Positions 14,057 through 16,321 of a stretch of DNA of 23,509 nt are shown piece by piece; position 1 is the stretch's first letter; every line of letters starts with the position of its first letter. The translations under genes and the position numbers were made by a program. A model generated the notes under the pieces. That model was given only the letters and a program-made list of their open reading frames with translations, made no database searches and was not told where the DNA came from. This DNA comes from a virus (Duplodnaviria > Heunggongvirae > Uroviricota > Caudoviricetes), in IMG/VR virus record IMGVR_UViG_2713896786_000017; one strand, given 5' to 3'.

Positions 14057-14442
14057 GGCTGGTATCCCGTCACGCGCTGCCACTCCTGCGAGAAGAGGGC
14101 GGAAAGGCGGTTAAATTCAGCGGTGTATTCACTCAGCGAGGCACACCCGCCAGCAGTGCGATGCGCCAGCATTGCTGCAAATACGGAGGCCGGGGAGTCG
14201 TAATACGCCAGCAGTGATTCGCCGTGCGGTGTCAGGCAGTGCAACGCCAGTCCGTGTGGTGTGAAGTCCACGCGGTAGCAGTCGTCTACTGTGAAATAAA
14301 GGGTGTCTGCATTCTCCGGTTTTGTGGTGCGTGCTCTGTTGTCACGACCACGGATGTAGAGATCAAATAACCCCTGAAGAACGGGAGCCAGACGGGTGTC
14401 CTGTGTGCGCACCCATCTTGTGAAGTCATGAGCGTCAATCAT
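14053..14442 (-). CDS. Hypothetical early protein (129 aa) directly upstream of and coupled to gene A
   Basis: Track ORF with ATG start; position is that of the small orfs preceding A in P2-like phages. Confidence 0.5.
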   Translation of the reverse strand: MIDAHDFTRWVRTQDTRLAPVLQGLFDLYIRGRDNRARTTKPENADTLYFTVDDCYRVDFTPHGLALHCLTPHGESLLAYYDSPASVFAAMLAHRTAGGCASLSEYTAEFNRLSALFSQEWQRVTGYQP

Positions 14443-14514
14443 GCTGCAATTCTCTTTACTACAGATGTGCGAAGGCCTCCCGCCGCAAGGTGCAGGAAAG
14501 GCCCGGAACAGGAA

Positions 14515-14745
14515 TTAATGGAGTTTGTTTTGCTGCTGGATGAGCTGTTGAAGCTCGTGCAGATCATCCGCCAGATAGCTGAAAACAGAGGCGGAATAAA
14601 TGTTTGATAGTGCGTGGCTGCGCTCATGCAGCATATTGATGTGCATGATTTGCGCGACGCGTGATGCGCGGTAAAGTCTGCGGTTGATTTCAGTCTGGAT
14701 GTGACGACGCGCAGCGTATGCGCGCTGTTGTTTGCGGTTTGCCAT
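14515..14745 (-). CDS. Hypothetical small basic protein (76 aa)
   Basis: Track ORF with ACGAGG 8 nt upstream of the ATG; arginine-rich helical N-terminus. An overlapping 205 aa ORF in another frame was rejected. Confidence 0.4.
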   Translation of the reverse strand: MANRKQQRAYAARRHIQTEINRRLYRASRVAQIMHINMLHERSHALSNIYSASVFSYLADDLHELQQLIQQQNKLH

Positions 14746-15067
14746 GGTGTGGCCTCGTGTATAGTAAGTTTTGAAAACTCACCATCCAGAGGTGGAAAAC
14801 TCGGGGTGGTGAGACGTACAGGGTTTCCACAACCGGCTATACACGAACCCGGCCCGACCAAAGTCGGCCCCATACGCCCCACCATAATTCGTGTGCGAAA
14901 AAGACGTGGCGATGCGGTACGCACAAAAAAACCGCTGGCGCGGTTGTGCGCGTGTATAGTCAGCGGGGTGGAAATCCCGGCACCCGTTTTATGAGGTGCA
15001 GCGGAAATGTAACCTGACTGATTGCGGCATGGCAAGCGGTTTTTTTGTGTGTGCATGTTCTGGTTTC

Positions 15068-16119: not shown

Positions 16120-16207
16120 TGTCACCCCTTCTTTAAATGTGTGAATCCCTCCGCTAATGCAGATGTTTTCACGTTTTCTTATTTAATCTGGTGTTTTGTT
16201 TGTGCTG

Positions 16208-16321
16208 TTATTCGTCAGGGAAATAACGTTCAATCTTTTTCACTGAATGAATAATTCGCATAATCCCAATGGCGCAGGCCACCGAAATAATCAGAACAAG
16301 CCATGAGATAAATATACTCAT
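16208..16321 (-). CDS. Small hydrophobic peptide (37 aa), predicted single-pass membrane protein
   Basis: Manual translation MSIFISWLVLIISVACAIGIMRIIHSVKKIERYFPDE; ATG overlaps the upstream stop (ATGA). Below the ORF-track size cutoff. Confidence 0.35.
   Translation of the reverse strand: MSIFISWLVLIISVACAIGIMRIIHSVKKIERYFPDE

Follow-up and report, generated by a model that had tools for sequence, protein, structure and literature searches.

A conserved gene for a predicted 37-residue membrane protein adjoining a DUF4754 gene in the early operon of a P88-type prophage of Escherichia coli

The locus and its early operon

The DNA analyzed here (the window) is a stretch of 23,509 nucleotides from a Caudoviricetes record in IMG/VR (IMGVR_UViG_2713896786_000017). 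Of it, 2 kb were searched, and these match E. coli O104:H4 strain FDAARGOS_349 with 100% identity. The window represents a prophage of the P2 family and P88 type (genus Xuanwuvirus) whose integration site adjoins btuC, and among its early genes is a minus-strand ORF, read from 16321 to 16208, with the 37-aa product MSIFISWLVLIISVACAIGIMRIIHSVKKIERYFPDE (Table 1). An initial annotation, made from the DNA alone, had described a short ORF whose ATG overlaps the stop codon of the preceding gene; this is exact, and the strand, absent from that description, is minus. Its placement of the ORF in an early operon is borne out by the gene order from a Cox-like gene to the replication gene A, by a Pe-like promoter, and by the divergent repressor and integrase genes. 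The accompanying claim that the gene is unannotated, having been missed by size filters, was mistaken, as RefSeq/PGAP lists it in this genome as WP_000021658.1, a hypothetical protein.

The Pe-like promoter sits between the divergent genes for the C-type repressor and the Cox-like protein. Following it on the minus strand are the genes for the Cox-like protein (PHROG 575), a DUF4761 protein, a 95-aa protein, the DUF4754 protein, and the peptide. On the 3′ side of the peptide gene are genes for proteins of 106 and 67 aa, a MarR-like wHTH protein, and a 99-aa protein, then an RNA region and genes for a "derepression protein," a 129-aa protein, and endonuclease A. The C-type HTH repressor and the integrase are encoded divergently on the plus strand. 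The arrangement is that of the early lytic operons in P2 and 186, and by analogy with P2 Pe and 186 pR, the promoter would drive the operon containing the peptide gene. The mechanically called integrase ORF (17804-18928, plus strand) overlaps the repressor gene by 101 nt; the RefSeq start is at 17954.

The DUF4754 gene adjoins the peptide gene in every locus examined, and the genes flanking the pair vary. The AlphaFold2 (AF2) model of the DUF4754 protein is a helical bundle (pLDDT 89); a fold search returned generic helical-bundle matches alone, with E > 1, and a sequence search against PDB gave no match. Longer DUF4754 proteins (103-128 aa) were considered as DUF4754-peptide fusions and rejected as such, being frameshift products that read the +2 frame and come mostly from read-level assemblies.

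A conserved hairpin follows the peptide gene (Table 1). Its fold has a z score of -3.3, with 98.8% of cells paired and compensatory changes in 2 of the 5 pairs, and it is retained in distant loci whose flanking proteins have fallen to 31-40% identity. It has no U-tract and so does not resemble the early terminators of P2 and 186, which do, and no complementarity was detected between the hairpin and the C4 RNA further down the operon. Its role could lie in RNA processing or stability or in protein binding, or it could be a boundary for recombination; how it relates to the peptide gene is uncertain. Homology to most related prophages and phages extends from about 16138 to about 17173-17187, so the genes for DUF4761, the 95-aa protein, DUF4754, and the peptide, together with the hairpin, form a conserved block between mosaic junctions. 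The genes downstream of 16138 (encoding the 106-aa protein, phrog_26764, and others) are variable cargo.

Further along the minus strand, a 322-nt stretch without an annotated gene (14746-15067) lies directly 5′ of the ORF for the "derepression protein" (14515-14745; Pfam PF25738) and is the site of Rfam matches to C4 antisense RNA and isrK (Table 1). Two pairs of direct repeats (14756-14768/14951-14963 and 14791-14804/14967-14980) flank C4, and each repeat is complementary to a stretch inside or adjoining the C4 match. By analogy, this region looks like an RNA-controlled antirepressor module of the P1/P7/P4 type in a P2-family prophage, and the 205-aa ORF that covers it (14439-15056) is probably spurious.

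Table 1. Positions of the peptide gene, its parts, and neighboring features in the window
Feature	Position	Strand	Basis or remark
C4 antisense RNA match	14802-14889	minus	Rfam, 76.5 bits
isrK match	14925-14999	minus	Rfam, 63.5 bits
Conserved hairpin/palindrome TCYGC-N4-GCRGA, then GG	16150-16163 (core); 16141-16172 (extended)	minus	Some 45 nt 3′ of the peptide TAA, at the 3′ edge of the conserved block
37-codon peptide gene with TAA stop	16208-16321	minus	P88 gp07 family, WP_000021658.1; ORF list and sequence
Codons 22-37: basic juxtamembrane RIIHSVKKIER and variable acidic tail	16211-16258	minus	Alignment
Predicted transmembrane helix, codons 3-21, IFISWLVLIISVACAIGIM	16259-16315	minus	Hessa sum, AF2 helix, conservative substitutions
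ATGA overlap of the peptide start with the DUF4754 stop (putative translational coupling)	16318-16321	minus	Sequence
80-aa DUF4754 gene, directly 5′ of the peptide gene	16318-16560	minus	Pfam PF15946, 2.8e-54
Shine-Dalgarno-like GGGGAA, 6 nt 5′ of the peptide ATG	16328-16333	minus	Inside the end of the DUF4754 gene
Pe-like early promoter TTGACA-18-TAAATT	17570-17599	minus	10/12 match, best in region

The peptide gene is already catalogued and is an ordinary small phage membrane-protein gene. Of 40 E. coli genomes that were sampled, 39 have the WP_000021658.1 annotation at the matching site, and the remaining one has only a partial match (48%). The reference genome of phage P88 lists the peptide as gp07 (YP_009113050.1, "membrane protein"); other phage records name it "putative membrane protein," and UniRef cluster names include "Prophage membrane protein." The locus is carried by 1,358 of 5,426 complete E. 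coli genomes (~25%), including O104:H4, O157:H7, and ST131. The peptide had no match in Pfam, PHROG, NCBIfam, PADLOC, or PDB. Literature searches turned up nothing on DUF4754, the accession, or the peptide sequence, and the papers on P88 and Citrobacter phiSM make no mention of the gene. Because RefSeq, UniRef, and phage-reference entries already exist, discovery of the gene carries no weight. What remains of value is a clean candidate for functional work on small proteins: 37 aa long, strongly conserved, apparently coupled to its upstream neighbor, and present in ~25% of E. coli.

Conservation of the peptide frame and its start

Related loci (157) were retrieved from IMG/VR, anchored on the DUF4754 gene, and combined with the window to give 158. 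The region is present in all 157 retrieved loci. In the window, the peptide ATG (16321-16319) overlaps the TGA of the DUF4754 gene (16320-16318) to form ATGA; this form is found in 157/158 loci, with GTGA in the other, and the ATGA overlap is also retained in the distant loci L162 and L166-L170. The Shine-Dalgarno (SD)-like tract preceding it forms a duplex of -5.5 kcal/mol with the 3′ end of 16S rRNA, a value that ranks within the top 14% among the ATGs of the window. Distant loci have a G-rich tract (GAGGAG, AGGTGG, or AGGGGA) at the SD position, 5-9 nt 5′ of the ATG, and the tract is kept despite differing residues of the upstream gene at this place (LGNIA, IEELA, VQVAA, IEGET, and TEVAA). 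As judged from these alignments, the ATGA overlap and the conserved SD-like tract show that the start of the peptide gene is coupled to the DUF4754 stop.

All 158 loci retain a start codon (157 ATG and one GTG) and an unbroken frame over the first 28-30 codons or more; they include 54 distinct haplotypes over codons 1-32. The pN/pS ratio was 0.21 in the peptide frame versus 0.20 in DUF4754; the other two frames of the same strand gave 1.6 and 1.1 and contain stops. An overlapping 47-aa ORF in one of these two frames (16230-16373, minus strand) was rejected as a selected gene on its pN/pS of 1.09. Synonymous changes make up 23 of the 48 single-nucleotide variants, against an expected 26% (binomial p = 1e-3), and the same variant test gave no synonymous excess in the other frames. 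Nucleotide diversity was 0.05 over codons 1-32, 0.10 in DUF4754, and 0.17 in the 82-nt downstream spacer. The sampled diversity is almost all Escherichia, so these selection tests rest on closely related, non-independent sequences; within this sample, they show purifying selection on the peptide frame.

More divergent relatives were sought by a profile search over 1.84 billion representatives, with a natural 41-aa variant also used as a protein query. The profile search matched the P88 gp07 family alone, including 41-aa subfamilies that are 49-62% identical. The exact peptide sequence is found in a 90% cluster of 183 members, and its identity to the aligned members is 70-95%; the family consensus (37-41 aa) is MSIFISWLVLIISVxCAIGIMRIIHSVKKIERFFTxE. 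In the distant loci, the layout is unchanged, with a DUF4761 gene, an 80-aa DUF4754-like gene, and then the peptide gene with its ATGA overlap. Synonymous divergence there is strong (pS of 0.44-0.79), with pN of 0.13-0.32 versus pS of 0.44-0.76 at deep divergence, and the motif W7...G19..R/K22-I-I...K28.IE..F is preserved. In L162, L167, and L168, which are fully diverged 41-aa lineages, the peptide is 49-62% identical and retains the architecture of a transmembrane (TM) segment followed by basic residues. Peptide identity is 49-78% across the distant loci, while DUF4754 drops to 31-40% in four of the five compared; on these alignments, the peptide is better conserved than DUF4754 and its neighbors.

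The initial annotation had named conservation of the frame in related phages as a check on the gene, and loss of the frame or absence of a translation signal as observations that would speak against it. The frame is kept in 158/158 homologous loci and translation signals are present, so neither objection applies: the pN/pS of 0.21, the synonymous excess, the distant loci, and the SD tract all speak for the gene. With high confidence, the 37-codon ORF is a genuine membrane-protein gene.

Predicted structure of the product

The best 19-residue window of the peptide covers residues 3-21, with a summed insertion free energy of -2.93 kcal/mol (Hessa 2005 scale). Among the 154 ORFs of 30-60 aa in the window, the peptide is the only one that attains this value, and its overall rank is second after BtuC. 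AF2, run with the family alignment, gave one helix spanning residues 2-33 (pLDDT 87). These results uphold the single predicted TM helix and charged tail of the initial annotation. Substitutions in the helix are conservative, being among L/I/V/M and A/V/I, and S6, S13, C16, and G19 are (nearly) invariant, forming a small/polar stripe along the helix. From the alignment, this stripe would fit helix-helix packing. Beyond the helix, K28, I30, and F34 are invariant, and K29, E31, and E37 nearly so. The N-terminus is uncharged and the basic residues R22, H25, K28, K29, and R32 come after the helix, so the positive-inside rule predicts an N-out/C-in topology. A lipoprotein reading of the lipobox-like S13-V14-A15-C16 was rejected: in many natural variants, position -1 is occupied by V, I, F, L, or T, and basic residues are lacking at the N-terminus.

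The tail is more variable, with 45-aa or 30-aa forms in 12 of the 158 loci (about 8%). A run of five A residues at 16236-16240 (codons 28-29) is a natural frameshift site, and +1 or -1 changes at or just after it give the 30-aa (..SVKKD) and 45-aa (..SVKRLNAFSLANN..) isoforms. In a larger database, a 34-aa form, possibly of similar origin, occurs on hundreds of contigs, as does the 45-aa form. These tails imply either that the peptide can do without what follows residues 28-33 or so, or that the gene decays in some loci; the variation may be neutral loss of the tail or a functional switch between isoforms.

Possible roles and comparison with known systems

The DUF4754-peptide pair is invariant and the peptide is the better conserved of the two, which favors a two-protein early lytic module in which the peptide contacts a conserved component of the host inner membrane; taken as a whole, this statement is judged slightly more probable than its negation. 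Under such a scheme, the peptide gene would be under repression in the lysogen, infection or induction would bring about its transcription from the early lytic promoter, and the peptide would be translated roughly one-for-one with DUF4754. It would insert into the inner membrane in the N-out/C-in orientation, and its helix could pack against a membrane partner so as to present the cytoplasmic motif R-I-I-x-S-V-K-K-I-E-R-F. The role would be that of a host takeover factor or modulator, like the small membrane regulators, rather than one in lysogenic conversion. A physical interaction between DUF4754 and the peptide, or between the peptide and a host target, may be surmised from gene order, and any specific mode of action for the peptide is proposed tentatively, with the odds against it. 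A bolder version is that DUF4754 and the 37-41-aa peptide make up a new two-gene early lytic effector module of P88-like phages, in which the peptide binds and inhibits or redirects a conserved host inner-membrane machine (e.g., the divisome, an FtsH-type membrane protease, or a transporter) and the hairpin marks the end of the module. This is speculative and more probably wrong than right; if true, the small-protein effectors of phages would gain a new family, with the module found in about a quarter of E. coli genomes. Were a host target to be found, a phage example would be added to the few small membrane proteins with known mechanisms.

Of the other explanations, the least credible by far is that the ORF serves through being translated, irrespective of its product, as a coupling or regulatory small ORF that leads ribosomes on from DUF4754 to the hairpin and the following genes, or that it is spurious. 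The start/stop overlap with the upstream gene, the conserved hairpin about 45 nt downstream, and the tolerance of the tail to frameshifts would all suit such a reading. Against it are purifying selection on the amino acids as strong as that in the neighboring gene, a hydrophobicity unique among the small ORFs of the window, and the 49-62% identity and common architecture in L162, L167, and L168 despite strongly diverged synonymous sites (pS of 0.44-0.76). A product that acts in the membrane on its own is a more serious contender, albeit an unlikely one. Type I toxins are shorter than 60 aa, with one TM helix and a short charged tail, and several are prophage-encoded (PMC12648545). The peptide has this size and architecture, and might likewise oligomerize and depolarize the inner membrane, with host shut-off, lysis timing, or abortive infection as the outcome; the serine/small-residue stripe could line such an oligomer. 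The likeness to Hok/Gef, Ldr, and TisB, and to the prophage-borne BsrG, YonT, and TxpA, is in form only, and the profile search detected no sequence similarity between the peptide and type I toxins. The small hydrophobic single-TM peptide of a type I system is present, but the independent toxin unit with a promoter and structured 5′ UTR is not: there is no intergenic region, and the peptide gene, which has no promoter of its own, appears translationally coupled inside a long operon. Rfam gave no antisense RNA family at the peptide locus, either at the gathering threshold or at E <= 1, and an antisense promoter-like site at 16237-16264 (9/12 match) belongs to a class of sites no commoner than in shuffles; an antitoxin sRNA of a novel family may nonetheless be encoded there. 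None of the 158 prophage loci has inactivating mutations in the TM part, which is unexpected for a leaky toxin, and the strict pairing with DUF4754 suggests that the peptide does not act alone.

Superinfection exclusion was also weighed. T4 Imm is an early-expressed, small inner-membrane exclusion protein of a virulent phage, and a peptide made early in the lytic cycle might similarly block the entry of competitor DNA at the inner membrane. The setting is comparable, in that the peptide, like Imm, would be a small inner-membrane protein produced early, and other small hydrophobic ORFs are recurrent variable cargo of related early operons. Imm is, however, larger than the peptide and unrelated to it in sequence, and the peptide showed no similarity to known exclusion or defense proteins in PADLOC, PHROGs, or Pfam. 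Its position 3′ of a repressed early promoter means that it would not protect the lysogen, and it is part of the conserved core module, not of the variable cargo that begins about 70 nt downstream. Exclusion is accordingly given little credence.

Small membrane proteins seem recurrent in P88-like early operons. Small hydrophobic ORFs occur just after the Cox-like gene in two distant loci (36 aa, L162:4039-4149; 29 aa, L167:2522-2611; each with a single helix), and phage P88 itself (L160:3884-4087) has the 67-aa, two-helix gp11 ("membrane protein") in its early operon. In one E. coli locus (L169:1-2795; GCA_900536625.1), the early operon is flanked upstream by MuA-like and MuB-like transposase genes, not by integrase and C repressor genes; its content runs from DUF4761 through DUF4754 and the peptide on to gpA. 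A hybrid element might account for this locus, as might insertion of a Mu-like element into the prophage. Neither P2 nor 186 has a comparable small membrane ORF annotated among its early genes, and P2 Orf78 is not hydrophobic. A holin or antiholin was rejected, as the peptide gene is in the early operon between the Cox-like and gpA genes, with DUF4761, DUF4754, and the 106-aa protein as neighbors, and not in a late lysis cassette beside an endolysin. In phage 186, the cell-division inhibitor Fil (75 aa) and Dhr (66 aa) occupy a comparable place in the early operon and are non-essential, small, host-directed proteins (186 annotation); unlike the peptide, neither has a TM helix. Kinship with Fil was rejected, as BLASTP gave no alignment and the Smith-Waterman score of 29 (IMRIIHSVKK against the Fil C-terminus IIRIVHFVIK) was reached by 62 of 2,000 shuffles.

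With regard to the favored two-protein module, presumed functional parallels are small single-pass membrane proteins that regulate others. MgrB, AcrZ, MgtS, CydX, and Caulobacter SidA are regulators of this kind, chromosomally encoded and with known targets. The peptide resembles them in size, in its single TM helix, and in a presumed mode of helix packing, and differs in being phage-encoded and without homology to them. Regulation of membrane protein targets is common among small single-pass proteins (PMC12648545). The peptide belongs to one family with P88 gp07, from another Xuanwuvirus, which is 92% identical over 37 aa and has the same position after a DUF4754 gene, the same 4-nt overlap, and the same Cox-to-A operon; the peptide and P88 gp07 are the same gene, with no material difference between them.
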